UHGV virus genome: UHGV-0125592 | Reading direction: 5' to 3' (one strand) | DNA from: a virus | DNA length: 33,748 nt | Shown: positions 1 through 23,998 of the stretch, in pieces | How positions within the stretch are numbered: the stretch's first letter is position 1 | How the letters are laid out: each line of letters starts with the position of its first letter | Notes under the pieces: model-generated | Told to the model about the DNA's origin: nothing | The model's database searches: none | Seen by the model: only the letters and a program-made list of their open reading frames with translations | Program-made: the position numbers and the translations under genes

Positions 1-286
1 TTGAATCGCCAGATATTCCTAGAATATGTCGGCCGGATGTAACATTGATATCGATCGTTTCTCCCGTATCAATTCTTGCATAGGATTTTCCATCAATAGT
101 TATTTCTACAAAGCATCCACCACCAGCAAACCATCCTTGATCTCGTGTAATTGTTATCACCGAGTCACCAGCCCCCTTCAGCAATACACGTTCAGATGGT
201 ACTTGTTTTGCAACGGTAGAATTCACCGCCGTGGTTGAACACCCAGCAACGCTAAGCGCAATTAGAAGCAGCAAAGTCTTTTTCAT
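1..286 (-). CDS. Putative lipoprotein, 5' part only (gene runs off the left edge)
   Basis: Reverse-strand ATG at 286 translates MKKTLLLLIALSVAGCSTTAV..., a signal peptide with lipobox LSVAGC; the frame stays open to position 1. Not in the ORF track because it is truncated by the window edge. Confidence 0.5.
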   Translation of the reverse strand, partial: MKKTLLLLIALSVAGCSTTAVNSTVAKQVPSERVLLKGAGDSVITITRDQGWFAGGGCFVEITIDGKSYARIDTGETIDINVTSGRHILGISGDS

Positions 287-340
287 ATCCCTATCACCTT
301 TGATTAATTTGCCAAAAGAGTAGCAGGGATCCGGTAACGA

Positions 341-363
341 CAAAACCCGCAGTTAAGCGGGTT
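341..363 (-). terminator. Intrinsic terminator downstream of the Rha antirepressor gene
   Basis: On the minus strand AACCCGC-TTAACT-GCGGGTT (7-bp stem) is followed by TTTTGTCGTT. Confidence 0.4.
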
Positions 364-396
364 GGGATAGCAAATCTATTTTAGATACTTTGGAGT

Positions 397-1128
397 TTAT
401 GCCACATCAGCGCCATGAATCAGATGGCGTAACGCATCAATCCCACTAGTGTTGTACCGGAACGTCTCAACTTGCTTACTGGAGTGAGCTGATTTATCCA
501 TCACAAAAATACCGTACTCGTCAGATTTGAGATTATTAGCATTTGCAACGCGCCCGATTTTCTGTGCTGACACACCAAGCATTTCACCTACTTCACTGGC
601 GCTATGATAGTGTTCTTCCACTTTTGGTAACGGTAGTAACTCAATACCAGCAGCATCGTTTACTGCTCGTGCCATAGCCGTTTGTTTGGCTATATCACCT
701 AACTTCGGCATAAACGATAACGCCAGGCTCATTGCCTCCACTTCCATCTTTATTGCGCGCGCTCTGCGATATTCCGGCAGGTGTGATGCTGATTTCTGCG
801 GAAGCATCTCTCCTGACTCAAGCTGACGCCAGCGTTTAGCCACTTTATGGCGTAGCGGAATGTTATAACCAGTCATCAGGGTCATGGTAAGGTCATGATC
901 AAGTTTAATTTCATCAATGACTACACGACCATTGTAAACCCGGCGCTTGATAGAAAACTCTTTAGAATCATAATCATCCAATTCTGGATAATGAAGATTT
1001 AGAGCTTCTAGCATTACCTCAATGTCACGAACTACGTGTGATGGATTCTTGCCAGTCAGCTTGGCAAGCTCGTGATGTGACATCATAGTGACAACAGATC
1101 GCGCATTTGCTACAGTTTGTTTAGTCAT
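397..1128 (-). CDS. Rha-family phage regulatory protein / antirepressor
   Basis: 243-aa ORF; N-terminus (MSHHELAKLTGKNPSHVVRDIEVMLEAL) matches the Rha-family pattern; AGGAA ribosome-binding site upstream of the ATG. Confidence 0.7.
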   Translation of the reverse strand: MTKQTVANARSVVTMMSHHELAKLTGKNPSHVVRDIEVMLEALNLHYPELDDYDSKEFSIKRRVYNGRVVIDEIKLDHDLTMTLMTGYNIPLRHKVAKRWRQLESGEMLPQKSASHLPEYRRARAIKMEVEAMSLALSFMPKLGDIAKQTAMARAVNDAAGIELLPLPKVEEHYHSASEVGEMLGVSAQKIGRVANANNLKSDEYGIFVMDKSAHSSKQVETFRYNTSGIDALRHLIHGADVA

Positions 1129-1161
1129 ATACGTTCCTACACGTTAATAGACTTCAATAGA

Positions 1162-1193
1162 CCGCCAGCAGCCACTGGCGGTTTTTCTTTTTG
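1162..1193 (+). terminator. Plus-strand intrinsic terminator between the two antirepressor genes (possible end of a Sar-like antisense RNA)
   Basis: CCGCCAG-CAGCCA-CTGGCGG hairpin followed by TTTTTCTTTTT on the plus strand, i.e. opposite to the flanking minus-strand genes. Confidence 0.45.
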
Positions 1194-1206
1194 CATTTAA
1201 GCAAGT

Positions 1207-1872
1207 TCAATAAATCCTCGGTCGTTCTCCCTGTTGAAGTTGTTGATCAGCATATTCCTTAATCATGTACATGAAGGCAGCTCCGTCATTAAAACGATCA
1301 TGAAGGCGACCAGCCAAAGGTGACTCTATTGCCCTCAAAGCCGGTTCTATCTGGTTAAACCATGCTTCACACATAACCTCGAAATAATCGAACATTGCGT
1401 TTGCATTGTGGGCGTGTATTTCTCTATTGCTGAGCATCTTCGATGCTGGAATATTTATAGACACCTCACGATCCAGAATATCTAACACCCAGCGTCGGAA
1501 TTCTTTAGCAACCGGAGTTCTCGCAAACATAGCGACCATGTGTGCACCACGTAGAGAAAAAACTCGAGTTTCTTGATGCCCACTAGGGGTGGTCAACTTG
1601 ACCACCCTCGACATTCTTTGCGTAAATTCATCAGAATGCCTTGAATAGATGCGCTGCACAGCTTTATCGTCCGCATACTGTAATGCATAACCAATCTGAT
1701 TAGCGGTCAGCCAAATGCCATCTTTATCAGAAATGCTCTGCAGAGATACGTCTTGGAAGTTAAGCTCAATTTTGGTTACACTATTCATGTCGATATCTCC
1801 TTTGCCGGATTTGTTCGATAAGAGGCCCAGAGTGTTAGCGCACTTCTGGGCTTCGCTACTTTTAACGACCAT
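1207..1872 (-). CDS. ant: Bro-N domain antirepressor (Ant-like)
   Basis: 221-aa ORF with Bro-N-like segment (WLTANQIGYALQY...VFSLRGAHMVAMFARTPVAKEFRRWVLDIL); start overlaps the stop of the upstream arc-like gene; AAGAGG ribosome-binding site. Confidence 0.7.
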   Translation of the reverse strand: MVVKSSEAQKCANTLGLLSNKSGKGDIDMNSVTKIELNFQDVSLQSISDKDGIWLTANQIGYALQYADDKAVQRIYSRHSDEFTQRMSRVVKLTTPSGHQETRVFSLRGAHMVAMFARTPVAKEFRRWVLDILDREVSINIPASKMLSNREIHAHNANAMFDYFEVMCEAWFNQIEPALRAIESPLAGRLHDRFNDGAAFMYMIKEYADQQLQQGERPRIY

Positions 1873-2035
1873 TTTCTACCTCTTCCCTCACTCCTTTTGC
1901 CAATAAACGAACAATCGCGGAGTTTAGTGAAATGCAGTCCATTTCCGCCAATCTCCTGATATCCTGGTCTAATCTCGCTGGTAAGCGAAGGTTACGTTTA
2001 ATGTTCTTTCTTTCTGTATAAAGTGAATCTTTCAT
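1862..2035 (-). CDS. arc: Arc-like ribbon-helix-helix repressor
   Basis: 57-aa product from ATG at 2035 (MKDSLYTERKNIKRNLRLPARLDQDIRRLAE...), small basic RHH pattern like P22 Arc; AAGGAG 7 nt upstream; co-directional with and overlapping ant. Confidence 0.65.
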   Translation of the reverse strand: MKDSLYTERKNIKRNLRLPARLDQDIRRLAEMDCISLNSAIVRLLAKGVREEVENGR

Positions 2036-2144
2036 TAAATTCTCCTTTTGGGGCCAAGTTAACACCTGATGTTAAGTTAACACCATTGCGATAGATGTCA
2101 AGTTGGCCCCATAATAATTTTATACAATCTTTGTAGGTGATGTG
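2036..2144. promoter_or_regulatory. Divergent promoter/operator region between arc-like and mnt-like genes
   Basis: Direct repeats AAGTTAACACC at 2056-2066 and 2074-2084 (each contains palindromic GTTAAC); inverted repeat GGGGCCAA (2050-2057) / TTGGCCCC (2103-2110). Confidence 0.5.
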
Positions 2145-2501
2145 ATGAGCAAGTACCCGAGCCAAATGCAAGACAAATTCAACCTACGCTTCCCTGACGG
2201 AATGCGTGACGTTATAGCTGAGCGAGCAAAGCGCAATGGAAGATCCATGAATTCAGAGATAGTGGATATAATTGCAAATGCTATATCACAACCGGCTTTA
2301 GCACAGGAGGGTATTGAATTCATTCTTGGCCTAACGGAGCCCGAAGAATTTGCAAAGCTAAACGATAAAGAGAAGGAAAAAGTTCAGGGAGTTCTAACAG
2401 ATGCCGCGGCCATAATGGCAAGAAACATAGAAACTGAAAGCGCCAATTTAAGGAAAATATTATTTCTACTATCCCAAGGCAGCCCCCTTCAGAAGGAGTG
2501 A
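2145..2501 (+). CDS. mnt: Mnt-like ribbon-helix-helix repressor
   Basis: N-terminus QMQDKFNLRFPDGMRDVIAERAKRNGRSMNSEIVDIIANAI resembles the Arc/Mnt DNA-binding motif (P22 Arc: MPQFNLRWPREVLDLVRKVAEENGRSVNSEIYQRV); longer C-terminal tail as in Mnt; divergent from arc-ant. AGGTGA ribosome-binding site. Confidence 0.65.
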   Translation: MSKYPSQMQDKFNLRFPDGMRDVIAERAKRNGRSMNSEIVDIIANAISQPALAQEGIEFILGLTEPEEFAKLNDKEKEKVQGVLTDAAAIMARNIETESANLRKILFLLSQGSPLQKE

Positions 2502-2510
2502 GACTCCATT

Positions 2511-3230
2511 CTAATAGGGTTTAACTAAATCCTTGTAGCGCAGTACCTTCATCGTCCGTTCCTGCCAGTATCCGCCATACGGAACACGCTGGCTCAAATG
2601 GCCATAAAGATGGTGGAGTAACATGTTACCTTCCAGCAGGATCCCTGCATGGTTCCACTTATTAGCCTGGACCTGCATGATAACCATATCACCTGGCTGC
2701 GGTACGCCACTGAATTCACGGAAGCCGCACTCATACCAGCAATCGTGGTAGAAGTTTTCGGGGTAACTGTCTTCCCACCAGGGATAATCGACGCGGTAAT
2801 CCTTCAGTTCAATACCATGCTTCTGCCTGAAGTAACTCATCACCAGCCCCCAGCAATCGAAGTGACCGAGCACAAATGGGCGCTCCAGTAGCGGCAGCTC
2901 GCCCCGCGGCTGGATAGTACGTACATCCCCCTCCGGCCAGCTGACGATATGCCAGGGAAGTAACGTAGCGTCACACTGTGCCTTATCCAGTTCGCTCGCC
3001 TGCGTCGTGGCATCCGGGTGGCTGTGGACAATGGCAATCACTGTTCCCCAGTCTTCGGCAGCGGCGTAATCTTCCGGCGACAGGTGGAAATGCTCTGTCG
3101 GATCGGTTGCCAGATTACGGCAGGGAATGTACCGCTGCACCCTGCTTTTTTGCACCACTACGCCGCAGCATTCGCGCGGATATTCAGCAGCAGCATGCGC
3201 CATAATAGCGTCGATAATTTTCTGACGCAT
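2511..3230 (-). CDS. Tail assembly protein K (MPN/JAMM plus NlpC/P60 domains)
   Basis: JAMM motif HSHPDATTQASELD and a Cys/His NlpC/P60-like C-terminal region; sits at the lambda K position next to L. Confidence 0.85.
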   Translation of the reverse strand: MRQKIIDAIMAHAAAEYPRECCGVVVQKSRVQRYIPCRNLATDPTEHFHLSPEDYAAAEDWGTVIAIVHSHPDATTQASELDKAQCDATLLPWHIVSWPEGDVRTIQPRGELPLLERPFVLGHFDCWGLVMSYFRQKHGIELKDYRVDYPWWEDSYPENFYHDCWYECGFREFSGVPQPGDMVIMQVQANKWNHAGILLEGNMLLHHLYGHLSQRVPYGGYWQERTMKVLRYKDLVKPY

Positions 3231-3231
3231 A

Positions 3232-3987
3232 TCAGCTCCTGATCAGGGATGTGCCAGGGAAGCCACCGAACGGCAACTCGTTCCCCTCGCCATGCCTCAA
3301 CTTGCACGCAGTGAGCGTACCGGGGCATTCATCGAGTGACGGATCGTTAACCGGGTTGTTGTGCTTGTCGAAATAACGCGTTCCGGCATAGTCACATCCA
3401 TCACCTGAGCGATATTTGTTACGGATACACCAGGTACAAAGCGAATGTAGCTGGCGCGTCGGGATCATCAGCCCCTGCAGGTCCATTGGACTGGACAACG
3501 TAAACGCCACCACCTCGTTGGTTTCAGTGCTCTTGGCGTCAATGTAAAACACCTTCAGCTTTTCCTGCTGCGGATCCGCTGACGGGTTGCCCTCCGGATA
3601 GTTTTTCGCATCCAGATACTGCGCCAGCGTGTCATGAATCGTGACCTTTGCCTGCAGCAGGTCATCATAAGCAAGACACAGCGCCGTAATGGAACTGTCC
3701 AGGTTAGCGACCGACAGCGTCGGTTGCGCGCTGGTCCCGTCGGTCGCCGTCTCAATACCCTCTATCTGGCAGGGCCAGGCTTTATATTCCTGCCCCTGCC
3801 ACCAGATCGATTTCGCCGGTAGCTTATTTTCATCTCCACCAGCAGCGGCAATTTCATCGGGAGTGTGGGCAATATTGTGGGCGTGGAAGCGGAGAACGTC
3901 GGAAACACCAAATGCGGTGCCATCGACATCAAAAAGCCGGACAGCATTGCCCGGCTCAAGTTTCTGATAATCACTGTTTAAGTTCAT
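3232..3987 (-). CDS. Minor tail protein L
   Basis: 251 aa; similarity to lambda gpL including the C-terminal Cys cluster (CTWCIRNKYRSGDGCDY...CPGTLTAC); position between M and K. Confidence 0.85.
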   Translation of the reverse strand: MNLNSDYQKLEPGNAVRLFDVDGTAFGVSDVLRFHAHNIAHTPDEIAAAGGDENKLPAKSIWWQGQEYKAWPCQIEGIETATDGTSAQPTLSVANLDSSITALCLAYDDLLQAKVTIHDTLAQYLDAKNYPEGNPSADPQQEKLKVFYIDAKSTETNEVVAFTLSSPMDLQGLMIPTRQLHSLCTWCIRNKYRSGDGCDYAGTRYFDKHNNPVNDPSLDECPGTLTACKLRHGEGNELPFGGFPGTSLIRS

Positions 3988-4331
3988 GGTGCAAATGCCT
4001 GTTCAAACGTGGCCGAAACGGTTTCCACCGTTTTACTTTTGGTGACTCGCTGCATGCTGTCTGCCTCAACGCGCCACAGCGCAAGATCACCGCCTGGCGG
4101 GGTAAACGAAAATGATTTCGTCTTATGGCGCCGCAGGAAAGCATAAATATCCCGGACGGTTTGCGGTTCGCCGGTAAATGAAAACTCATAACTGAGCGTT
4201 TCATCATTCATCCCGGCACCTGACACCTGCTTATAGCCATCACCAAACTGCGCCGTGCGGACGGTATCCTTACTTTTCAGGGTCGGCTGGCTGGATGCTT
4301 TAATCCGCCATGCAAAATGTTCGATCGCCAT
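3984..4331 (-). CDS. Minor tail protein M
   Basis: 115 aa, lambda gpM size and position; overlaps L start. Confidence 0.8.
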   Translation of the reverse strand: MAIEHFAWRIKASSQPTLKSKDTVRTAQFGDGYKQVSGAGMNDETLSYEFSFTGEPQTVRDIYAFLRRHKTKSFSFTPPGGDLALWRVEADSMQRVTKSKTVETVSATFEQAFAP

Positions 4332-4334
4332 TGC

Positions 4335-6851
4335 TTACCTCTGTTTTGTTGCATTCCAGATGATGCCGCCGGGCCGGACTTCTCTGGTGATACCTTCCCT
4401 GATGGAACTGTTGATCACCTGCTGATAGGCTTTCCCAAGCGCATCGCCGCTACCTTTCTGTTGACCGGAATCCCCCTGGCCTGTTGTAACCGAAACCGGT
4501 GCATACACGCTGACGCCAAAAGGAGAAGCAACGCCACCGCCACTCCCCCCGACCAGACCGCCAGTCGCATAACCACGCATCATGCGATAAAGGTTGCCGA
4601 CACCGATTCGGTTAGTGGCCTCCTGCGTAAAGACAAACTCTCCACGGTGCACCACACCTGCAGGCTCATACTTGCCGCCGGAGCCGGTATAACCACCGCC
4701 AGCAAAACCCAGCGCTGACGTGGCGGAACTGACCAGGCCAACCATGGCCTGCTTCATCAGGATCTGCGTCAGCATCGACAATGTGGAACGGGTGAAATCA
4801 GCCCAGTTTGCTTTCCCTGTCGTCAGCATATCGGCCATGTTCTGACTGATGCCATCGAATGTGGCTGAAGCAGCGGACTTCATCGAACCATAGGCATCAG
4901 CAGCTGAATCGGCATAGTCCGCCCAGGCGGATTTTGCCCCGGCCTGCCAGTCGCTACGGAGCTCATCCTGTGCGGCATAGTATTCCTTCAGCGCCGCCAG
5001 CTCGTTCTGATAGCCCTGATCGGAATCCGTTCCGCCGGCATTCATCCAGCCCTGCCGCAACTGCGCCTCTTCGTTTTGTCGCTGCGCACCGCGACTGCTC
5101 ATGCTGCCCCCGGCCACCAGCGCTCGGGTCTTCTCCCCGATCTTGGTAACGTACTTCTGCGAGCTGTCCTGCAGGCGGTTTAACCGCTCCTGGGCAACAA
5201 TCTGATCACCCAGTCGGGCATTCACTTCGGCCCGCGCCAGTACCTCGTCTTTGTTCGCCAGCACCGATTTTTCATCGGCGGTCAGCGCGCGCTTTTTGGC
5301 GGCCTCTTCCAGCACCGAAAAGCGGGATTGCTGTTTCCACAATTCCTGCCGCTGCTGGCTGATGGTATCCGTGATGCTCTTATGCTCCTGCAAAGTGCGT
5401 AACTGCGCCTCCAGCTCGAGCGTCTGCGCGCTGGCAGCATCGACACTTTTTACGCCTGCAGGTGTTTTCACTGCTGACGGCTTTTTAGGCTTCTTCAGTG
5501 AGTCGTCGTATTCCTTCTTAGCGGCTGCCATCAGAATGTTGTAATCAGCCTGGAGGATACGTCCGTCTTTGATGGCCTGATTATATTCTTTCTGTTTTGC
5601 CGTAAATTTATCCAAAGCTGATTCGGTCTTTGAATATGCAGCCTGCGCCTGCGCGGCATACTTCTGGCGATCAGACTCAATCACCGCCTCGCGTGCGGCG
5701 TTATCCTCAGTTGCCTTTGCCACACTGGCCTGCTGCTGCGCCATTTCCAGTGCAAGGCGTGCAGATTCCCGATCGTTCCAGTAGCTGGCGCGCGCATCAT
5801 CATTGACATAACCATCACCTTTACGCAGATTCCAGATTTCATCCGCCCGCTTAAAGGCCGCTTCAGCTTTGGCAACCATCTCCTGCGTGGTGTCAGGCCG
5901 GCCGATATCGAGCGCCGCATCCCACATCGATTTAAAGGCACGCTTCAGGCTGTCGGCAGCAGTCTCAATCGACCCCATATTGTCGCGCAGGCTCTTTGTC
6001 TGCTCACGAAAACCATTCGTCGCCGCATCATTAGCCGCCTGCAGCGCCCCGGCTTCATCCCCGGCACGTTGCAGCTGTGCCACATAAGCAATCTGTTCCG
6101 CTGTGACGTTATGGAACTGCTGCGCCATGGCAATCAGACCAGAGGTCGGATCGTTCGTCAGTTTGCCGAATGCCGCCGCCACCTTATCGACCGGCACACC
6201 CGACGCATCGGTGAATTTCGCTACCGCCTGACTCATATCATCGAACCGGGCACCGGCACGCACTCCGGCGTTAACCAGCTCCGTCAGCGCGTTGCTGGTC
6301 TGGTTAAACGTGAGTCCCGCCTGCTCGCCGGATTTCGCCAGAACCAGCATGCGGTTTGAGGTCAGCCCGGCAGTGTTTCCGGACAGGACCAGCGTTTTGT
6401 TGAAATCAGACAGCGTGGACGAGCCCTGATACCAGGCGTAAACCACCGCACCGGTGGCGGCTGCCAGCGCGCCAACCCCCACCATCACCGGCGATATGGT
6501 GCCCAGCAGCGCCCTGAAGGTCGGCATGATACCGCCGAAGGAGTCTTTAACCTGACCACCCTGCTGCAGCAAAATGAGCCATGGGCTTTGACCACCGGCC
6601 AGCTGGGTGGCGATATCCGTAAACTGCGCAGGCAGCATACGCATCGCGGCGTTGTACTGGCCTACAGAAATACCGGCCTTCTTCGCCGCGCTCTCCTGGC
6701 GGGTAAATGACTGCTGCACCTTCAGCGCAGAGTCATTCGCTGCGTCACCCGTCTGCTTAAACTGCCGTTTTACGTACTCCATCTGTTCGTTGAACTTTGA
6801 CGAGTTAACATCAAGGTTAACGACCAGGTCACCCACTGCCGTCTGGGCCAT
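4335..6851 (-). CDS. Tail tape measure protein (gpH-like)
   Basis: 838-aa Ala/Gln-rich coiled-coil protein with Gly-rich C-terminus, downstream of G-T as in lambda. Confidence 0.9.
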   Translation of the reverse strand: MAQTAVGDLVVNLDVNSSKFNEQMEYVKRQFKQTGDAANDSALKVQQSFTRQESAAKKAGISVGQYNAAMRMLPAQFTDIATQLAGGQSPWLILLQQGGQVKDSFGGIMPTFRALLGTISPVMVGVGALAAATGAVVYAWYQGSSTLSDFNKTLVLSGNTAGLTSNRMLVLAKSGEQAGLTFNQTSNALTELVNAGVRAGARFDDMSQAVAKFTDASGVPVDKVAAAFGKLTNDPTSGLIAMAQQFHNVTAEQIAYVAQLQRAGDEAGALQAANDAATNGFREQTKSLRDNMGSIETAADSLKRAFKSMWDAALDIGRPDTTQEMVAKAEAAFKRADEIWNLRKGDGYVNDDARASYWNDRESARLALEMAQQQASVAKATEDNAAREAVIESDRQKYAAQAQAAYSKTESALDKFTAKQKEYNQAIKDGRILQADYNILMAAAKKEYDDSLKKPKKPSAVKTPAGVKSVDAASAQTLELEAQLRTLQEHKSITDTISQQRQELWKQQSRFSVLEEAAKKRALTADEKSVLANKDEVLARAEVNARLGDQIVAQERLNRLQDSSQKYVTKIGEKTRALVAGGSMSSRGAQRQNEEAQLRQGWMNAGGTDSDQGYQNELAALKEYYAAQDELRSDWQAGAKSAWADYADSAADAYGSMKSAASATFDGISQNMADMLTTGKANWADFTRSTLSMLTQILMKQAMVGLVSSATSALGFAGGGYTGSGGKYEPAGVVHRGEFVFTQEATNRIGVGNLYRMMRGYATGGLVGGSGGGVASPFGVSVYAPVSVTTGQGDSGQQKGSGDALGKAYQQVINSSIREGITREVRPGGIIWNATKQR

Positions 6852-7176
6852 AGCGAACGCCTCCTGAAATGCCCTCGGCCTTTGCCATCAGCACAGCATC
6901 ACCGGGTTCATCGTCGGCAATATCCTCCGCAGAAGGTGAAAGCAGGCTGAAGCTGGCAGGGGTTGATGTGGTTTTGGGGTCAAGCGCGGTAATGACGATA
7001 TGCATCAGCGAGGAAAAATGTGCATCTAGTTGCGCATCATTAAAAAAATTGTCCTGGTAGAACGTTCGCCAGTCGGCGTATTCCGTTGACGACATACCAG
7101 CAAGCATGGCGCGCCAGTCCGGGCGGCGAAATTCACGCGCCAGTTTCAGGACGAATGTCAGCTCACTGGCGAGGAC
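6829..7176 (-). CDS. Tail assembly chaperone T segment (expressed as G-T fusion by programmed -1 frameshift)
   Basis: The T reading frame is -1 relative to G and stays open from the slip region at 7176-7182 through MLAGMSSTEY... to the stop at 6829; lambda G/T arrangement. Confidence 0.7.
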   Translation of the reverse strand, partial: VLASELTFVLKLAREFRRPDWRAMLAGMSSTEYADWRTFYQDNFFNDAQLDAHFSSLMHIVITALDPKTTSTPASFSLLSPSAEDIADDEPGDAVLMAKAEGISGGVRYGPDGSG

Positions 7177-7565
7177 TTTTCCAGACTGACCGGCTCAGTC
7201 ACTGCGACATCCTCCGGATCATTCGCTTCCTGCAAAGGCACCATGCCGGACAGCAGCTTTACGCTGTACTCTGCTGCGGAAACAATCTCCAGCGGCCAGG
7301 TCATCAGCACTTCATTCTGGATCTGCTCTACGTCTTCTTTTGGCGTTTTGTGCGTCCCTTTCAGAGGATGCCCATGCCATAACGACATGGCCACCAGGAG
7401 TGCGCCGGATTTAATCGTCATTTCCATCGCCGCCTGCATGTCGGTATCAGTGATACTTTCCAGCGACTTCAGGTGTTCAAGATGCTCAATACGCTGCAGT
7501 GCCGACAGTTCGTAGAGCGTGACTGTATTACCGTTACGTTCGAACGGTTCACTTTTTAAAAACAT
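7158..7565 (-). CDS. Tail assembly chaperone G
   Basis: 135 aa; N-terminus MFLKSEPFERNGNTVTLYELSALQRIEHLEHL closely resembles lambda gpG; followed by the overlapping T frame. Confidence 0.85.
   Translation of the reverse strand: MFLKSEPFERNGNTVTLYELSALQRIEHLEHLKSLESITDTDMQAAMEMTIKSGALLVAMSLWHGHPLKGTHKTPKEDVEQIQNEVLMTWPLEIVSAAEYSVKLLSGMVPLQEANDPEDVAVTEPVSLEKSSPVS
7176..7182 (-). other. Putative -1 ribosomal frameshift site (GGAAAAG on the coding strand) for the G-T fusion
   Basis: Heptamer CTG-GAA-AAG sits near the end of G where the -1 frame becomes open; lambda uses GGGAAAG at the equivalent place. Confidence 0.5.
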
Positions 7566-7601
7566 GGGTTACTCCGGAAAGCGGGGCCACAGCCCCGGAG
7601 G

Positions 7602-8339
7602 TCAGGAAACGGTGACTTTACAGGTCGCGACAAACAACCCGTCATTGGTCATTACGATAATGTCGGCGGTTCCGGCGGCAATGCCGGTGACCGTCAGCAC
7701 CGTACCGGCGACAGCCACCGTGGCTTTACCTGCATCCGTGGTGGTGGCCCGGAAAGATGGATCGCTTGCGCTGGCTGGCGCCACGGTGACATTCAGCGTG
7801 GTGGTGGCAGCAACTGCAACGGTGGCGGTCGATTTATCCAGGCTGACTCCAGTTACGGCAATCGCTGCAGCAGCAGTGTCTTCAGCAAGGCCTGGCTTAC
7901 CGTTATTGCTGATTTTTACAGAACGGGTAATGGTGTCTTTTGCTGTCACCGTTTTGCCCAGGCTACTTACCCAGCCACGGAACACATCGATGGCGCCATT
8001 CGGGTATTTGATTTTGTACGCCAGCACGGTACCGTCATCAAACCAGCGAACCAGATCCTGCTGCCCGCTCTCAGCAGGTTTCCAGGCCAGCGTAAAACTG
8101 GCCTCGCCCGCCGATTTCTGCCCCTGCGCGGTAGCAGTCCAGTCGGCATCATCGTCATCCAGATAGGTATCATCGTTTGATTCGGCAGTCAGTTCACCGG
8201 GCTGCAGATCTTTAATCTTTGCCAGGCGCGTCCAGTCAACATCCGATAATGGGTTAGCGAACGGGTTGCCCGATCCGGAATAAATCCAGAGCGTGGTGGT
8301 GGCACCCTTTACTGGCGCCAGTGGGTTTGGTGTAGTCAT
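7602..8339 (-). CDS. Major tail protein V with C-terminal Ig-like domain
   Basis: 245 aa; lambda gpV size and position; Thr/Ala/Val-rich C-terminal Ig-like segment. Confidence 0.85.
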   Translation of the reverse strand: MTTPNPLAPVKGATTTLWIYSGSGNPFANPLSDVDWTRLAKIKDLQPGELTAESNDDTYLDDDDADWTATAQGQKSAGEASFTLAWKPAESGQQDLVRWFDDGTVLAYKIKYPNGAIDVFRGWVSSLGKTVTAKDTITRSVKISNNGKPGLAEDTAAAAIAVTGVSLDKSTATVAVAATTTLNVTVAPASASDPSFRATTTDAGKATVAVAGTVLTVTGIAAGTADIIVMTNDGLFVATCKVTVS

Positions 8340-8346
8340 TACGTCC

Positions 8347-8745
8347 TCACATAATGTAGCTGATGGAATAACTGAGGTCGGCAGATCCCCACGTCATGGC
8401 CTCTTCATCGCGCTGATAGTCATATCCCTGAGCCGCCATCAATTCGAGAAGATTTGCCAGTTCGGGAACATCAGCCATTGCCGGATAGATGCGGTCCTCC
8501 ATCCAGGAATCCAGAGCACTGTCTGTAGCCGTGGCTTTCAGAAACACCTCAACATGCAGCACGGCTGTCCACATATCTTCATCAACACTTTCATCCGAGG
8601 CCCGGGCGTCAGAAAGGTAAACCGCTACCGCCGGAAGATCCTGCTCATCCAGAAACCCAGGACGACCGTCGAACCATGTCACTGCATCTGAGATATTGCG
8701 CTGGAGCGCGGTTAGTACGGCTTTGCGGATATCACTGTTTTTCAT
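8347..8745 (-). CDS. Tail terminator protein U
   Basis: 132 aa at the lambda U position between Z and V. Confidence 0.75.
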   Translation of the reverse strand: MKNSDIRKAVLTALQRNISDAVTWFDGRPGFLDEQDLPAVAVYLSDARASDESVDEDMWTAVLHVEVFLKATATDSALDSWMEDRIYPAMADVPELANLLELMAAQGYDYQRDEEAMTWGSADLSYSISYIM

Positions 8746-9296
8746 CGTTTAAGGATCAACCTCAGTTGGTTAGACAGGTTTTGTCGCATAATTTGCGGCA
8801 TACGTTCGTCCATAAGTTTTGGCACTTCAGCCCGGAATGTCTCGGTCAGGGGAATGGTCAGGGGAATACTGACCACTTCAATGGGATACCGGCTCTTCGT
8901 GGTACGCCGCAAAACATGCCAGCGGCCGTTTGCCAGTTGCTGAATAAAGGCCCCAGGGAAACGGAAACGCCCTACACGTAGCTCACTGTTCGTACCAGAC
9001 TTATCCCGTTTACGCCGGGACAGACGCATGCTGGATGGTCCCAGTTTGATAGCAGGAAGATTACCGCGGTTTATGCGAATCAGAGCGCGCGGCTTCGCCA
9101 CCGTTGCCCGGCGTACCCGCGCACGCTGCCTGACCAGTTTTCGGGGGACGCGGGTTGATTTCGCGACAGCGGACACACTGCGATTGACCGCCTGTGTGGC
9201 GATACGATTCACCGTCTGGGCGGAAGCGCGCGGTACAGCTTTTTTACTGATGCTGTTCAGGTTAGCAATGGCCTGCTCCAGCCCCTTAATCGACAT
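8742..9296 (-). CDS. Tail completion protein Z
   Basis: 184-aa basic protein at the lambda Z position; start/stop overlap with U. Confidence 0.7.
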   Translation of the reverse strand: MSIKGLEQAIANLNSISKKAVPRASAQTVNRIATQAVNRSVSAVAKSTRVPRKLVRQRARVRRATVAKPRALIRINRGNLPAIKLGPSSMRLSRRKRDKSGTNSELRVGRFRFPGAFIQQLANGRWHVLRRTTKSRYPIEVVSIPLTIPLTETFRAEVPKLMDERMPQIMRQNLSNQLRLILKR

Positions 9297-9308
9297 ATTC
9301 CCCCCTGC

Positions 9309-9584
9309 TTATTCGATAAAGATGCGTGGCTTGCTGTTAAAACGTTCGTGGCGGGTAAGATGGAATTCCTCCCCTTCAAAAATCACCACGTCATTACGGC
9401 GCGGCCTGTATCCTGCAGTAAACACCACCAGTGACCGCCCAGTTCCGCTCAAAGGCCCCATTTCTTCCAGAAACTCAGCCGGAATAACAATCATGGGCTC
9501 CCCGTTGATGGTCGCTGGCTTGCCCATTTTGTTTACCGTGACCGCATCCATGCGGCTGACAAGTCTGTCAAAGGGATTAGGCAT
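9309..9584 (-). CDS. Head-tail joining protein (FII-like)
   Basis: 91 aa, position between head genes and Z; weak pattern similarity to lambda FII. Confidence 0.5.
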   Translation of the reverse strand: MPNPFDRLVSRMDAVTVNKMGKPATINGEPMIVIPAEFLEEMGPLSGTGRSLVVFTAGYRPRRNDVVIFEGEEFHLTRHERFNSKPRIFIE

Positions 9585-9903
9585 TGATTTTCACAGCTAC
9601 AATTGCGGAACTGGCAGCAGCATCTTCCCAGGCTACCCCGGCCAGCTCGGCACCTGTCGCGTCGTTCTGCACTTTGCCATCTTTGATATGAACCTGCTCA
9701 CCGATGGTGATCGCATCGGTAGTCAGCTTGGGCAGCAGGAAAACCCCTTCGGCAAAACCGTCCCCCGCCTGGCCTGCCGGAATATCAGTAATGGCAATCG
9801 CCACGACTTTCCCCACCAGCACCGGCGAACCACTCAGGATCGCAACGCTGCCCGTGTTGGCAATCTCAATAGTTTTGCCATGCTGTACAAAATTCTTCGC
9901 CAT
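9577..9903 (-). CDS. DUF2190-like small head protein (putative decoration/cement)
   Basis: ATG at 9903 with GGAG 9 nt upstream; product MAKNFVQHGKTIEIANTGSV...AVKINA (108 aa); the longer 180-aa ORF in the track begins with an N-terminal extension that is unlikely to be translated. Confidence 0.55.
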   Translation of the reverse strand: MAKNFVQHGKTIEIANTGSVAILSGSPVLVGKVVAIAITDIPAGQAGDGFAEGVFLLPKLTTDAITIGEQVHIKDGKVQNDATGAELAGVAWEDAAASSAIVAVKINA

Positions 9904-9946
9904 AAATTCAGTCTCCATACAGCCCCTGTTGGGGCCGAACTCAGAT

Positions 9947-9968
9947 ACAAAAAAAGCCCTGATGGGCT
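9947..9968 (-). terminator. Weak intrinsic terminator/stabilising hairpin after the capsid gene
   Basis: Minus strand AGCCC-ATCA-GGGCT followed by TTTTTTT, 27 nt after the capsid ORF stop. Confidence 0.35.
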
Positions 9969-9994
9969 GTGATGTGCTGCTTGAGTGGAAGGAA

Positions 9995-11944
9995 TTATTT
10001 CCCGGTAGATTTCGCCAGGCCACGATAATCCAGAGGGGAAACACCAGCATCGATGCGCACCTTGGTCGCAATGCCGTCGGTCGTGAAGCCTTCCTGCTGG
10101 TCGATATACGGAGTATCAACGCCGTTCAGGTAAGCCACTTCGATGGTGTCCGTGCCCTTAGAGGCGGCCAGATACCAGGCGCTGGTGTCTTTGGCGTCAA
10201 GACGCGGCTCCGCGATAACTTCAGCAAAGTTCTGAATTGGGTTCATGATACCGGCGTTGATATCCGCCCCTTTCACACTGGCAGACTTGATCGTCTGGTT
10301 TGCCAGGGTTTCGAGCGCGACTGGCACCAGCATGAATGCCGGGCGAATATTCAGGGGACGCTCTCCCTCTTTCTGAAGGCGCATCATCTTGCGCGCTTCA
10401 TCAAGGCTGGCTACAGAAATCGCGCCTGCGGAAATATTGCCGTGATCAGCATGGAACAGCGGCTTGCCATCAGCCAATTTCGCGTTTTCGGTAAGAACGG
10501 CATATACCAGATCGCCAATCGTCCCTTTTGCCGCGCGCCCCATCTTCATAGGTACATCGGTTAACTGATTCAGATCGTCGTTGATGATAGCCTGACGGGT
10601 AATAGAGAAGATTTCACCGTAGGTGGCCAGCGCGATGCTTTCACCTTTATCTTTGGTGGTCACATACTTATATTCAGCCCCCTCGCGTACCTGACGCAGG
10701 GAGGAGAAACCACCCAGACCGACACGATGCGCCGTTTTAAAGTCAGACAACTGGCCTTTCTTGGTCCACTGCTCAAAAGTTTCTGCCGCTTCCTCCCAGC
10801 CCTGAAGCAACGCTTTATTAGCAACGTCGAGCAGGATATTGCCGAAGTCAGACGTGCTGTGCGTCAGTGCCATACCGACCATCTGCATCGGGTTATAGCT
10901 GGAAACGCCGATGCCGCGCTCGGTCAACGCCATACGGGCATATTCGCGCAGCGTCATGCCGTTATAGACGTTGTCACGCTCCAGGCTCTCAAAGCCCGCG
11001 CGCGCCATCAGTGCCTGGCGAACTCCATCGCCAACAAAGTTACCGTTCCCGGCGTAAATATGCGCATCCGTGGTTTTATTCGACGGGGTTGCATTTTTGC
11101 CCAGCGCTGCCAGCAGTTCATCTTTAGCCTGTGCAACGGTGCATTCCGGATCCGCGATGCATTTATTCTGCAACTCATGATGCTTGCCGCCGAACATCGC
11201 AAAGAGATCGTTAATCGCGGTAACACGGTTCTTTTGCTCGGCAAGCACCTGTGCACGGATAGTGGCTTCATCAGAAGTGGCCGCCGGCGCTGTGGTCGTC
11301 GTTGTCCCCACCTGTGGTTGCTGAGGTTCGCGCTGGGTAGTATTGCGCGGCGGGGTGATCATGTTACGAATGCTGTTTGGCATCTTTTCAAAGTCCTCGA
11401 TACGTTTTGATTGAATACAGGCCATCGCCTGCAGAGATGTTGTGACCTGATCAGCAAAGCCATGCGCCAGGCATTCTTTACCATCCATCCAGGTTTCATC
11501 TTCCAGCATGGCGGCAACTTCCTCAGTCGTTTTCCCGGTTTTCTCAGCGTATGCCGGGATCAGGACTGACTCGACCTTATCCAGCAGATCGGCATAATCC
11601 CGCATGTCGTTGGCATCACCACCTGCAAAGCCCCATGGTTTATGGATCATCATCATCGTGTTTTCCGGCATAATGACCGGGTTGCCAACCATCGCAATCA
11701 CAGAAGCCATTGAAGCTGCCAGACCATCAATGTGAACGGTGATCGCCGCGCCGTGATGCTTAAGGGCATTAAAAATGGCGATGCCATCGAAGACATCGCC
11801 ACCTGGCGAATTGATATGAAGGTTGATATGGGTAATGTCGCCCAGCGCCTTCAGGTCATTTACAAACTGGCGCGCCGTCACCCCCCAGTAGCCGATCTCG
11901 TCGTAGATATAAATATCCGCTTCGTTGTCGGCGCTGGCCTGCAT
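9995..11944 (-). CDS. Prohead protease (ClpP-like) fused to major capsid protein
   Basis: N-terminal ClpP/S14 motifs (INSPGGDVFDGIAIFNAL, GLAASMASVIAM with catalytic Ser, MMIHKPWG with His) followed by a long capsid-like C-terminal domain in one ORF. Start placed at ATG 11944 just after the portal stop; upstream TTG/ATG starts (12049, 12031) are possible. Confidence 0.75.
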   Translation of the reverse strand: MQASADNEADIYIYDEIGYWGVTARQFVNDLKALGDITHINLHINSPGGDVFDGIAIFNALKHHGAAITVHIDGLAASMASVIAMVGNPVIMPENTMMMIHKPWGFAGGDANDMRDYADLLDKVESVLIPAYAEKTGKTTEEVAAMLEDETWMDGKECLAHGFADQVTTSLQAMACIQSKRIEDFEKMPNSIRNMITPPRNTTQREPQQPQVGTTTTTAPAATSDEATIRAQVLAEQKNRVTAINDLFAMFGGKHHELQNKCIADPECTVAQAKDELLAALGKNATPSNKTTDAHIYAGNGNFVGDGVRQALMARAGFESLERDNVYNGMTLREYARMALTERGIGVSSYNPMQMVGMALTHSTSDFGNILLDVANKALLQGWEEAAETFEQWTKKGQLSDFKTAHRVGLGGFSSLRQVREGAEYKYVTTKDKGESIALATYGEIFSITRQAIINDDLNQLTDVPMKMGRAAKGTIGDLVYAVLTENAKLADGKPLFHADHGNISAGAISVASLDEARKMMRLQKEGERPLNIRPAFMLVPVALETLANQTIKSASVKGADINAGIMNPIQNFAEVIAEPRLDAKDTSAWYLAASKGTDTIEVAYLNGVDTPYIDQQEGFTTDGIATKVRIDAGVSPLDYRGLAKSTGK

Positions 11945-16400: not shown

Positions 16401-16518
16401 GGCAGGCCACCCCGCCAGGAGGACCCATTTAATAATAATGATTATCACTTGCAATGATGAGTAGCGGGCATTAAAAAGCCCCGCTTTTGCTAGGCTTATT
16501 CGATGTGATAGCTGAGTA

Positions 16519-16722
16519 TCATTCGTCTTTTTTGATTACCACTTCTTGTGGTCTCATCTGCTGGATAGCACGACAGATGCAATATGGGATTACCGCCCAC
16601 GCAACGCCCATTGCTGCACCAGCAGCCTGCTGAGGCGCACTAACAGCACCGAACACTCCGATAATTCCCTGCACAAACCCAATCACTCCGCAAGTAATGC
16701 ATATAACCCAGAGAAATTTCAT
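16519..16722 (-). CDS. Small two-helix membrane protein (moron; possibly YbcW-like)
   Basis: ATG at 16722 with AAGGAG 9 nt upstream; 67 aa, MKFLWVICITCGVIGFVQGIIGVFGAV...; two hydrophobic segments. Confidence 0.4.
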   Translation of the reverse strand: MKFLWVICITCGVIGFVQGIIGVFGAVSAPQQAAGAAMGVAWAVIPYCICRAIQQMRPQEVVIKKDE

Positions 16723-17150
16723 TACCAAAACTCCTTTTATCAAAGAGATACCATGATAACCCCATGAATTATTTAGTAAAGCATGATCACAGACACTCAG
16801 TGAATGTCTGCTGTAACGCCTACTCAGTCGAGCTGTAGAACACCATGTTCTTCTGATTCAAAGTATGCAATAAGCATGCTGTATTCGGGGATGATACTAC
16901 CGTCATCAACTCCGCCTTTACATGTTGGTTTGTGGCAATTTACTTTTTATAGTCAAGCATCTGTCACTAAGGCGACATACTTTGAGTGCGCTTTGCTACA
17001 TTGTAAAATTTTCAGCAATGAGGCACATTAGATGTTCAGATGAAACTGTAAGTTCTTGACTCGGGCCGGATGATTAAATCATAACTTTCATTACACTTTG
17101 AGTAATCAATCTCATCCAGCATAGTTAAGCCCTGTTGATAAGGAATGTAT

Positions 17151-17570
17151 ATGGCAATTAAAATCATTGGTGGAAATATTAGTGGTAATGGTGGTGATGG
17201 CATCCATGTTGGGGATGGATTTGATATAGAGGTTATAGGCACCAAAATCACCGATAATCATCGTGATGGAATTCATGTCGCAAGCCCTAATACGAATGTT
17301 AGCATTCAAAATATTGAATGTTTCGGTAATACAAGAGATGGAGTTCATGTTGCTATAACAATGCAAGATTTAGTTAATGCTGGGTTGAAAGAAAATATAC
17401 CACAAGAAGAACTAAACAAGGCACAAAAGGTCATAGTTGAAAACACAAACAAACCACTTATAAAAATAACGTCCGCATTAAAAGGAATAGGATTCTGTCG
17501 CTGGATCACAAAAGGTTCAGAACTAGCAACAATTACGTCTCTTTTAATTCAGCTATTCACAAAAAATTAG
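17151..17570 (+). CDS. Hypothetical low-GC protein with three DGIHV beta-helix-like repeats
   Basis: 139 aa from ATG 17151 (AAGGA 6 nt upstream); repeats GDGIHVGDG / RDGIHVASPNTN / RDGVHVAIT; AT-rich relative to flanking phage genes; opposite strand to the late operon. Confidence 0.45.
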   Translation: MAIKIIGGNISGNGGDGIHVGDGFDIEVIGTKITDNHRDGIHVASPNTNVSIQNIECFGNTRDGVHVAITMQDLVNAGLKENIPQEELNKAQKVIVENTNKPLIKITSALKGIGFCRWITKGSELATITSLLIQLFTKN

Positions 17571-17639
17571 CCTTATTTATAATTAATATCATTGACATTC
17601 AAATAAACTCAAGAATAACACCTATTTATTCTACAGGAC

Positions 17640-17673
17640 GCTTACCACTCTCTAACAGTGGTAAGCTTTCCCC
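17640..17673 (+). terminator. Hairpin terminator after the low-GC repeat protein gene
   Basis: Perfect 10-bp stem GCTTACCACT / AGTGGTAAGC with 7-nt loop followed by TTT. Confidence 0.35.
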
Positions 17674-17839
17674 ACAGAGAATAATCATTCTTTATGTGAT
17701 GCATACATGTTTTTCTATCAAGAGTACGTTCTGCAGATTAGCTTGCTCCTCACCAGAAGCAAAGCCTGTTCTCTTAATGGGAAATCAGGAGCAAGTTATA
17801 ACCATACTATTACATTTCAGTTGCTGCGCCTTATCCGTA

Positions 17840-18364
17840 CTACTTTTTCATTTGTTCAGTCACTCTGTTATTTGACTCTCTCACCGAGTCGTAAACTCGC
17901 TCACACGTTATTCCAGCTCGGTAGCTTTCGTCAGATCGCTCAGCATAATATCGAGCTTCTTCTGCAAGGCGTCCGAGCATGTCGGCGAGCACTGCGGCGG
18001 CGGATCCGGCTGTTTTGCTTCTGACGGCAGCGGCAAGATCTGAGGTGTGCTTTGCGGCGTCCAAGCGGGCGGCAAGCTTTGTTGCTTCGGTGCGCAACTG
18101 GCTAACAGTGGCAGACAGGCCAGCAGCAGTGGCAGCAGATTTAGCGGCTTGTGCTTGTGCATCTTTTACAGCCTCATCACGGGCAATTATGCGCCCTTGC
18201 TCAATCATGCGGGCGGCGGTCTGCGCGTTCGCTGTTTGCGATGATTCCGCGCTGTCACGGTCAGCCCACTTCTTTTCCCAGCCGTGATTGCTCCATACGT
18301 TTCCGGCGATGAATGCGACAGCCACTAGCATCAAAATAACAATGAACTGATAGTGCAGGTTCAC
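17840..18364 (-). CDS. Rz-like i-spanin
   Basis: N-terminal TM helix ([15 protein letters not shown]) then Ala/Gln-rich coiled coil; follows the endolysin; probable GTG start overlapping the endolysin stop (GTGA). Confidence 0.7.
17908..18162 (-). CDS. Rz1-like o-spanin lipoprotein embedded in Rz
   Basis: Lies entirely within Rz in another frame; signal peptide with lipobox LLASC, Pro-rich mature part. Confidence 0.6.
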
Positions 18365-18909
18365 TTGTCTATCCCCCAGCACGTCAGCCCGCTTTCCTGG
18401 TCTCGTCGTTCAACCTGTCCGTAGCAGCCGTTTTTCTGGCCTTTGGTCAGACGGCAATCGCGGCCACCGTCTTTAATCCACCAGCGGATCGCTTCACAAG
18501 CTCCTTTTCGGTCGCCAGCATTGATCCGTTTGTAGAAAGTGGAAGGGAAGCATTTTCCGGGACCGATGTTATAAGGGCAGAAAGAAGCGATACCCGCTTT
18601 CTGAGGTTCACTCAGCGGGACTTGGATATTTTTCTCTACCCACGCCAGCGCCTTGTCGCGTTCTATGGCGTTCACCTGGGCGCATTTCTCAGCAGACAGT
18701 TTCATGCTCTGAACTACTGGCTTACCGTCAACCATCGTGGCGCCACGGCAAATGGTCCACACTCCGCCGCCGTCGCGATATGCCGTCAGGCTGTTACCCT
18801 CTTTCTCATCCAGAAACTGATCGAGAATTACAGGTGCGGAAGCCCCAGCAAGAATCAAACCAACTACCGCTGCACTCAGTTTATTCTTCAGCTTTGGTGA
18901 CATTGCCAT
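18361..18909 (-). CDS. SAR endolysin (GH24 T4-type lysozyme, RrrD-like)
   Basis: Catalytic E-x8-D-x5-T motif ([16 protein letters not shown]); N-terminal weakly hydrophobic signal-anchor-release segment ([17 protein letters not shown]); GGAGG ribosome-binding site. Confidence 0.85.
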
Positions 18910-19159
18910 TAAGCCGGTCCTCCCTTTCCTTTTTCCTGTAATACCAGTTCACTGCACAGGTGATAACCGTGCATGCGATACCGACAATAATTGCCCAGTC
19001 GCTCAGGCTTAACCCTGCAATTCTGTCGGCCAACATCCAGGACACCTCTTTTGCTGTTTTAGCTGTTTCGGCGTATGCCTTCGCTGATACACCGCAGCCG
19101 GTCAGCGTGGTGCCTGTTCCATATGAAAGTCTGCTGTAAATGGTGCTCATTCTGGTCAT
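18881..19159 (-). CDS. Pinholin-type holin (S21-like) with dual start
   Basis: MTRMSTIY... has two Met codons separated by Thr-Arg (antiholin/holin pattern); Gly/Thr-rich TMD1, hydrophobic TMD2, charged C-terminus; GGAGGTGAGG ribosome-binding site; overlaps the endolysin start. Confidence 0.7.
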   Translation of the reverse strand: MTRMSTIYSRLSYGTGTTLTGCGVSAKAYAETAKTAKEVSWMLADRIAGLSLSDWAIIVGIACTVITCAVNWYYRKKEREDRLNGNVTKAEE

Positions 19160-19294: not shown

Positions 19295-19352
19295 TGTAAC
19301 CAGAAATCAATATTGTCTTTACATCAATTTTTCTTAAGGTTAAATTCTTCTG

Positions 19353-19428: not shown

Positions 19429-19551
19429 CGCCCTGCTAAAAGTTCCACCGTTGTGAGCCTTTTTGCTATGCAATAATGGATGCGTGGTGCCGGGTGTCTC
19501 CCGGTGATCCTTTGGCTGACAACCCATGCCTCACGAACATTTCACAACGGG

Positions 19552-19581
19552 ATATAGAAAAGGCCGTGCATTTGCATAGCC
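19552..19581 (-). terminator. Intrinsic terminator, copy B (imperfect duplicate of copy A)
   Basis: Minus-strand GGCUAUGC-AAAU-GCACGGCC hairpin (one mismatch) followed by UUUUCUAUAU; shares the flanking motif ATAGAAAAGGCC...AGCC(C)TGAAA with copy A. Confidence 0.45.
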
Positions 19582-19602
19582 CTGAAAGATGTTTATGCTT
19601 TA

Positions 19603-20100: not shown

Positions 20101-20183
20101 GCCACTCTCCAGACAACTTTTGAAAGGAATCTGCATAGTAACTCACCCTGAAAGCACATGGTTATATTTCACTTACACTGAGT

Positions 20184-20220
20184 GCGAAAAACAAAAACCC
20201 CACCATTTCTGGCAGGGCTT
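20184..20220 (-). terminator. Possible terminator upstream of the 165-aa gene
   Basis: Minus strand: GC-rich imperfect hairpin (CCCTGCC...GGTGGGG) followed by TTTTTGTTTTT. Confidence 0.3.
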
Positions 20221-20349
20221 CGATTGTTAAGCTGTGTGTCGAAGTGACCACTCTTAACACGTTACATTACTTTTTGCGGACCGCAATAATGTTTTTTATT
20301 ATTAAAACAGGTATTTTATGGAAAAAAATCAAACCATAGCGAGCAAATA

Positions 20350-21219: not shown

Positions 21220-21275
21220 TTAACGTGGCATTAAACTTGCAGATAGCGCAACTGATCTTCTGGATAGGAGTGATT

Positions 21276-23997: not shown

Positions 23998-23998
23998 A

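Follow-up and report, generated by a model that had tools for sequence, protein, structure and literature searches.

The left end (positions 1-2510) of the UHGV virus genome UHGV-0125592, a stretch of 33,748 nucleotides whose full length is hereafter called the window, very probably belongs to an ant moron (we put this at about 85%): a self-regulated cassette of about 2.72 kb, of the type of the immI region of phage P22, which has recombined into the junction between tail genes K and I of a lambda-like, non-defective-looking prophage of Citrobacter freundii, located between the host genes yecD and yecE. The name ant moron denotes blocks of this kind in the late operons of P22-like phages, where they undergo rapid turnover (epsilon34 genome paper, PMC2629481). 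While the kind is already known, the K/I slot is new and the payload is not that of P22. Gene content, homology, insertion borders, distribution and the sequence architecture of predicted promoters, repeats and antisense RNA were established directly, and are described below.

A first-pass annotation of the window had described an immI-like antirepressor module in the place expected for the tail-tip genes I and J. Comparison with an uninterrupted relative, a prophage of E. coli whose K, L and I proteins are 91%, 86% and 76% identical, led to a different description, namely an insert of 2.72 kb at the K/I junction. In the empty site of the E. coli relative, K and I share 16 nt, with J next in order, whereas here K and I are neither adjacent nor overlapping, unlike in the usual lambda-type order K, I, J, and the insert lies between them. 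Nucleotide similarity to the empty site ends at about position 2526, 15 nt before the stop codon of the window K gene, the last five codons of which are new; protein similarity resumes at the start codon of I, and 2720 bp take the place of 14 bases in the empty site. Neither a target duplication nor terminal repeats were found at the insert borders, in keeping with recombination at junctions, as is typical of mosaic phages. The insert gives K a new C-terminus (VKPY) and provides I with a new Shine-Dalgarno sequence, directly past the strong terminator of a lipoprotein gene. The guanine-plus-cytosine (GC) content of the block is 43-44%, as compared with 54-59% in the adjoining tail genes. All the features by which a moron is recognized were found, i.e. 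insertion in a late operon, a related phage without the insert, promoters and terminators of its own, and atypical GC content. The features of the insert within the window, together with the gene at its right border, are listed here from right to left.

2511-3230, minus strand: tail gene K (Pfam Prok-JAB, 1.4e-20; NlpC/P60, 1.6e-21), one border of the insertion.
2145-2501 (GTG alternative at 2142), plus strand: gene for a Mnt-like ribbon-helix-helix (RHH) repressor, 118 aa (Pfam Arc, 7.5e-18).
2036-2144 (109 bp), between the two repressor genes: control region with inverted repeats and two predicted promoters, divergent and overlapping (sequence, promoter and repeat scans).
2101-2074, minus strand: predicted Pant-like promoter, TTGACA at 2101-2096, 16 nt spacer, TGt-TAACTT at 2079-2074 (promoter scan).
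2086-2115, plus strand: predicted Pmnt-like promoter, TTGCGA at 2086-2091, 18 nt spacer, CATAAT at 2110-2115 (promoter scan).
2082-2070: 13-bp palindrome TGTTAAcTTAACA, over the Pant-like -10 element (repeat scan).
2046-2067 and 2093-2114: outer inverted-repeat arms of 22 nt (repeat scan).
1862-2035, minus strand: gene for an Arc-like RHH repressor, 57 aa, the first gene of the payload operon (BLASTP against P22 Arc).
1753-1863, plus strand: predicted sar-like antisense RNA gene, RNA at about 1790-1863 (Rfam and custom covariance model).
1753-1782, plus strand: predicted Psar-like promoter, TTGGAA at 1753-1758, 18 nt spacer, TACACT at 1777-1782 (conserved).
1207-1788 (open reading frame (ORF) 1207-1872), minus strand: ant-like payload gene 1, 193 aa (Bro-N, 2.8e-10).
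397-1128, minus strand: antirepressor-like payload gene 2, 243 aa (phrog_1726 'anti-repressor', 1.7e-50).
344-363, minus strand: terminator-like hairpin after payload gene 2, in the sense direction (terminator scan).
1-286, minus strand: lipoprotein gene, 141 aa, the first 95 codons of which are in the window (lipobox VAGC; phrog_890 'lipoprotein', 5.4e-43).

The order read by the first-pass annotation (K, a convergent mnt-like gene, divergent arc-like and ant-like genes, a second antirepressor-like gene and a lipoprotein gene) is borne out by the ORFs and the profile searches, which gave statistical support to the gene set of positions 1-2510 at essentially the coordinates of that annotation. 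Its identification of the module as P22 immI-like also held, as the promoter layout, the inverted repeats, a sar-type RNA and two RHH repressors were all found. The lipoprotein gene is the last gene of the insert; it has its own terminator and is followed, outside the window, by gene I.

The Mnt-like gene is convergent with K and ends 9 bp (2502-2510) short of its stop codon. The N-terminal RHH domain of its product is 48% identical to that of P22 Mnt (E 2e-12), and in an AlphaFold2 model (mean pLDDT 77) the two RHH helices are followed by a long C-terminal helix of 38 residues (74-111), which in the model fits a Mnt-like oligomerisation domain. A scan of genome contigs (one genome per species) with the Mnt-like protein returned only three distant loci, evidently because the representative genomes do not contain this prophage. 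The start of the Arc-like gene was set at the ATG following AAGGAGA, rather than at the start of a 67-aa GTG ORF. Its product is 32% identical to P22 Arc (BLASTP, E 2e-5) and 80-96% identical across many homologous cassettes.

The elements of the control region between the two repressor genes are nearly invariant among 22 variants extracted from homologous cassettes. The predicted promoters are consensus-like, and the inverted repeats are both conserved and co-varying: in cassettes with a divergent Arc, GGGGCCAA/TTGGCCCC in the outer arms changes to GGATTAA/TTAATCC. The whole is laid out like the annotated Pant, Pmnt, Oarc and Omnt of P22. No LexA box (CTGT-N8-ACAG, one mismatch at most) was found in positions 1-2600 of the window, and LexA control of the module was rejected on this ground.

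The arc-ant gap is predicted to encode a sar-type antisense RNA whose sequence is complementary to the ant start codon and ribosome-binding site; as in P22, the Psar-like promoter sets the predicted RNA start beside the ant start codon. The Rfam sar model (RF00262) matched positions 1790-1857 (plus strand), exactly in this gap, over its full length, although with 25.8 bits (E 0.038) the match is below the gathering threshold (43 bits). A covariance model of our own, built on 20 cassette homologues with P22 left out, gave 84 bits on 1790-1863 and recovered the annotated P22 sar with 34.9 bits (E 2.7e-5). It matched once in most cassette loci, several times in loci L049 and L054, and not at all in locus L022, in which the sar region is disrupted. 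In the realigned set, 18 of the 23 base pairs showed compensatory changes, values that none of 500 shuffles reached, and controls with slid pairing partners remained far below the observed covariation. It should be noted that MAFFT/RNAalifold had retrieved only the outer terminator stem from the sar regions because the alignment was not structure-aware, a problem solved by the covariance model and realignment. Realignment to a model leans towards the structure of that model, and it is the slid-partner controls and the independent match to P22 which argue that the signal is real. The multiple matches consist of four sar-like elements in L054 (6736-10336) and of copies at 7649-7719 and 9413-9486 in L049; both loci contain multiple Mnt/Arc-like genes and differing payloads, which suggests tandem or nested cassettes.

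The ant-like payload gene 1 probably starts at the ATG at 1788, as called by NCBI, giving a protein of 193 aa. This matched phrog_245 (2.2e-39) and also phrog_5060, both annotated 'anti-repressor Ant', and it belongs to a family with 2829 homologues (E<=1e-5); those with source names are from Enterobacterales, save one from a metagenome-assembled genome labelled Bifidobacterium. The Rha-family label given to the second payload gene by the first-pass annotation is weakly supported. The gene is antirepressor-like according to phrog_1726, and NCBI names its product 'Rha family transcriptional regulator', whereas the match to Pfam Rha (PF09669), although extending over profile positions 1-90 of 91, gave 21.6 bits (E 3.4e-4) against a cutoff of 29.9. 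Searches of NCBIfam and PADLOC with the two payload proteins and the lipoprotein returned nothing useful, and no PADLOC defence model was matched. In other cassettes, the payload domains are Bro-N with P22_AR_C, P22_AR_N with P22_AR_C, P22_AR_N with ORF6C, KilA-N, or KilA-N with a helix-turn-helix domain. Bro-N and a clear P22_AR_C domain occur together in the Ant protein of phage SPN3UB and in a P22-like Citrobacter phage; P22_AR_C, significant in SPN3UB and in locus L013, is the domain shared with the genuine Ant of P22.

The window ends within the lipoprotein gene, and what lies beyond was read from eight contigs (L002-L009; independent Citrobacter freundii assemblies and gut metagenomes) retrieved by an exact match to the 243-aa protein. 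Their identity to positions 1-11128 of the window is 99.6-99.99%, over the parts that each covers. All eight run past the window edge into the remainder of the 141-aa lipoprotein gene and then into a gene for a gpI homologue of 196 aa (phrog_32, 1.7e-75; Lambda_tail_I, 24.1 bits with a cutoff of 23.8), which is about 76% identical to the E. coli I protein and starts 196 bp to the left of window position 1. In the longer contigs there follow gpJ (1067 aa; domains FNIII-A_GpJ, Phage-tail_3 and Phage_Tail_Tip), then genes for a DUF6453 protein, for an S74 tail fibre and for DinI, UmuD-like and hemerythrin proteins, and finally the host genes yecD and aspS. In contig L002, the genes between the tail-fibre gene and yecD (17477-19057) are two of the DinI family, one UmuD-like (phrog_3469) and one with a hemerythrin domain; they may be cargo at the prophage end. 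On the other side, the integrase gene (32385-33698) adjoins yecE, followed by yecN, cmoA and cmoB. The element is thus flanked by yecD and yecE, which are neighbours in the host, and both of its ends are present.

The first-pass annotation had offered two explanations for the missing tail-tip genes: either they are displaced beyond the window, or the prophage is defective in tail-tip and host-range functions. The former was correct, as the leftward extension proposed in that annotation found gpI and gpJ homologues just left of the window; the latter was not, since I, J, the DUF6453 gene and the S74 fibre gene are intact and the flanks are those of yecD and yecE. As to the findings that the same annotation had thought able to overturn its reading, homologues of I and J are indeed there, the module is a common conserved insertion, and the prophage end is supported by host flanks only.

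The window also encodes a CII-like protein, a RusA-like resolvase, a holin, an endolysin, a spanin and a small terminase, and large ORFs such as are expected of replication, packaging and head genes are present. The Q-like antiterminator, the lysis genes and the terminase are all on one strand, and there is no sign of a defective prophage. The remaining tail genes adjoining K, as found by ORF listing and profile searches, and the genes of the repressor and the antiterminator are as follows.

3232-3987, minus strand: tail gene L.
3984-4331, minus strand: tail gene M.
4335-6851, minus strand: tape-measure gene.
21927-22295: Q-like antiterminator gene.
27468-28127: S24-type CI gene.

With regard to distribution, comparison with related prophages, which the first-pass annotation had recommended, revealed the module as a recurrent conserved insertion. 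The order K, cassette, I is found in many Citrobacter assemblies and in Salmonella, including further Citrobacter prophages (L022, and L023, the second payload gene of which is mosaic) and a Salmonella enterica assembly (L182). In L022 (6563-7543), an IS5-type transposase gene has taken the place of everything between the middle of the sar terminator and the end of the lipoprotein gene, leaving mnt and arc beside I; its K protein is 96% identical. A description of an immI cassette at the K/I junction was not found in the literature, the coverage of which was incomplete, so that its absence is not proven. Homologous cassettes occur at at least five different structural or tail gene junctions in other phages, namely:

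flanked by G/T chaperone genes and the tape-measure gene (SPN3UB with its relatives; an HK97-like Cronobacter prophage);
flanked by the tape-measure gene and M;
after J-like genes;
between gene 16 and gene 9, in P22-like phages;
after tailspike and gtr genes, in E. coli.

Wherever the neighbouring genes could be recognised, arc and the payload are co-oriented with the structural genes and mnt is opposite.

The terminator scan further pointed to what looks like a second sar-type antisense RNA, predicted at the start of payload gene 2, which has the following parts.

1088-1196, plus strand: candidate second antisense RNA (promoter and terminator scans).
1088-1116, plus strand: promoter-like site with an extended -10 element, inside the first codons of the 243-aa gene, GTGACA at 1088-1093, 17 nt, TGC-TACAGT at 1108-1116.
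1159-1184, plus strand: strong terminator hairpin CCGCCAG-N6-CTGGCGG with T-run (terminator scan).

The predicted RNA start, at about 1123, is beside the CAT at 1126-1128 which corresponds to the start codon of the 243-aa gene, and the RNA would cover the Shine-Dalgarno sequence of that gene. The hairpin is on the plus strand although the local genes are all on the minus strand. The same motif (CCGCCAG-N5-7-CTGGCGG and a T-run) is found in at least 120 viral contigs; each of the 80 unique flanks has a minus-strand ORF whose start is 14-39 nt away from the hairpin, and in 76 of them TGnTAnnnT is located at a fixed offset from the start codon. This promoter motif is kept at the DNA level while the encoded residues vary (TVA, NLA, NVA, KIA, TLA), by means of xTA codons and of GCA for Ala; xTA codons are uncommon in enterobacteria. 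The predicted RNAs are 64-82 nt long, with two hairpins and usually with an anti-Shine-Dalgarno sequence in or beside the first loop. The terminator stem is invariant, and the 5' hairpins come from sequence families that cannot be aligned with one another. The candidate has no Rfam counterpart, and no description of a second antisense RNA was found in the literature, of which coverage was incomplete and absence therefore not proven. A single E. coli segment (NZ_AP050512.1, 3912350-3912440) matches positions 1104-1194 at 90%, while the rest of the 4.4-kb query is unmatched there.

That the immI-like module has replaced I and J, leaving a defective prophage which yields no infectious particles, is an explanation to which we assign next to no weight. 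It was suggested by the fact that inside the window there is no I or J gene to the left of K, an apparent gap produced by the position of the window edge. Right after the lipoprotein gene, contigs identical to the window have gpI, gpJ with its three Pfam domains, the DUF6453 gene and the tail-fibre gene, all of them intact; genes for the head, the tail, lysis, Q, replication, CI and the integrase were all found, and host genes flank the prophage on both sides. Only a little less improbable is the idea that the cassette is an inert, decaying leftover of an old recombination with no present function. The prophage in L022, which through IS5 insertion or deletion has lost everything from ant through the lipoprotein gene while I and J are apparently intact, does speak for it to the extent that the cassette is dispensable for the prophage backbone. 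However, decay is difficult to reconcile with cassette ORFs that are all intact and nearly identical over many assemblies, and with promoters, inverted repeats and antisense-RNA structure that are kept with compensatory changes in divergent cassettes.

An ant moron with antirepressor payloads has also to be weighed against a view that keeps the switch and changes the cargo. The core (mnt, the two promoters, arc and sar) would then be a generic portable switch, the payloads would be DNA-binding regulators or factors for host takeover or exclusion, and the lipoprotein would act in superinfection exclusion like sieA. We regard this as unlikely, if considerably less so than the two explanations above. 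Payloads do vary between cassettes while the core stays 80-96% conserved, Bro-N, KilA-N and Rha are predicted as DNA-binding domains, payload 1 lacks similarity to P22 Ant, and the P22 moron likewise includes an exclusion gene, sieA; on the other side, the PHROG families 245, 5060 and 1726 all carry an antirepressor annotation, near relatives of the cassette have a significant P22_AR_C domain as does genuine P22 Ant, and nothing matched a PADLOC defence model. Several observations nevertheless weigh against the ant moron as we read it. Direct BLASTP of payload 1 with P22 Ant gave no similarity, its N-terminal domain is Bro-N and not P22_AR_N, and its match to P22_AR_C (21.0 bits) is below the cutoff of 22.4, so that its antirepressor activity is suggested by family annotation only; sequence searches of the PDB with both payload proteins returned no solved relative. 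The Arc-like protein is below threshold with the Pfam Arc profile (E 0.0046-0.0068), and the Arc assignment appears less well supported than the Mnt assignment. The hairpin after ant faces the opposite strand, unlike t_ant of P22, which makes the transcript ends in the sense direction uncertain. Finally, the only candidate for an att core is an 11-bp direct repeat, TTAACTGCGTG, with E 0.08 in a small search, which is not convincing; its copies are at the integrase/yecE junction (contig L059, ~5333-5343) and between a DinI gene and yecD (L002, ~19320-19330). As no att core was convincing, it is the host flanks that support an intact prophage end.

By analogy with P22, the ant moron would work as follows. 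In the lysogen, the Mnt-like repressor expressed from the rightward promoter would shut the overlapping Pant-like promoter. After infection or derepression, Pant would transcribe arc, ant and the second antirepressor gene, until Arc feedback closed Pant; the sar-like RNA would pair with the ribosome-binding site of ant and block its translation. The payload proteins might then inactivate CI-type repressors, either the S24-type CI of the same prophage or those of co-resident prophages. As sense-direction terminators follow payload gene 2 and the lipoprotein gene, I, J and the fibre genes would need read-through by Q-modified late transcription. In this scheme we infer the binding of the proteins to their operators, the antirepressor activity and its target, and the read-through. 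A tentative, and as yet rather doubtful, broader view takes the cassette as a portable, self-contained switch, inserted in the orientation of the structural genes at many tail-operon junctions, perhaps with two sar-type RNAs, one for each payload; since its internal terminators precede I, J and the fibre genes, it might also set the level of tail-tip and host-range proteins, as has been proposed for the P22 tailspike.

Elsewhere in the window, the first-pass annotation had pointed to a third antirepressor-like gene in the nin region, and profile searches agreed:

23302-24024, minus strand: third antirepressor-like gene (Rha, 2.6e-10; KilAC/ANT, 6.5e-25).

Two stretches of low GC content (38-43%) were observed, one at 16500-18000 between the small terminase and the lysis genes and the other at 19500-21900 between the lysis genes and Q; the plus-strand ORFs within them, which run against the late operon, have no known function (17145-17570; 20350-21219, phrog_3243; 21482-21904). 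A match to the Rfam DnaX frameshift element at 2858-2918 (plus strand), antisense to K, gave 22.1 bits against a threshold of 35 and was treated as due to chance.

For the original question, the main value of these results is a correction, in that the prophage should not be scored as tail-tip-less. More generally, the Mnt/Arc/sar core is common beyond the P22-like podoviruses, with interchangeable payloads, in the tail clusters of lambda-like, HK97-like and SPN3UB-like siphoviruses, whose hosts are Citrobacter, Salmonella, Cronobacter and E. coli. In strains with several prophages, one of these may use such a cassette to induce or sense the others. What most deserves following up is how widely the cassette occurs in the tail operons of siphoviruses, together with the candidate second antisense RNA, which, if true, would be a simple addition to the classic regulatory circuit.

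Among known systems, the LexA-controlled antirepressors of the Gifsy and Fels prophages (PMC3121763) resemble the present case in that their genes, in lambdoid enterobacterial prophages, are found away from the immunity region, and in possibly acting on the repressors of other prophages; they are, however, small proteins under direct LexA control, whereas here the predicted control is of the Mnt/Arc/sar type and there is no LexA box. The ant morons of epsilon34, L, ST64T, HK620 and other P22-like phages (PMC2629481) are likewise variable, independently regulated late-operon blocks which are missing in related phages, turn over rapidly and sometimes include exclusion genes, but they belong to podoviruses and occupy the slot between ejection-protein and tailspike genes, while the homologous cassettes considered here are found at several junctions of siphovirus tail clusters. 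P22 immI itself shares the order and orientation of mnt, Pmnt/Pant, arc, sar and ant, the layout of overlapping divergent promoters (predicted in the present cassette), the Mnt and Arc RHH repressors, a sar-type RNA (here likewise predicted) abutting the ant start codon, and a place in the late operon just upstream of, and in the same orientation as, the host-recognition genes. It differs in its slot (gene 16/gene 9, as compared with K/I in a lambda-like siphovirus), in its Ant, which is composed of P22_AR_N and P22_AR_C whereas the present payload has Bro-N, in a shorter Mnt (83 versus 118 aa) and in the sequences of the inverted repeats; the second antirepressor-like gene and the lipoprotein gene are additions of the present cassette. 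A homologous cassette in a siphovirus tail cluster is found in gp19-gp21 of phage SPN3UB, annotated as an Arc-like regulator, an Arc-like repressor and an anti-repressor Ant. Its slot is between a G/T-like chaperone gene and the tape-measure gene rather than between K and I, its Ant is 38% identical with a clear P22_AR_C domain, and the next gene encodes an ORF6N protein; at the same time, its nucleotide sequence is 80% identical over parts of 1162-2263 of the window, its Arc is 86% identical, and it has the same sar-like RNA and the same hairpin after ant.

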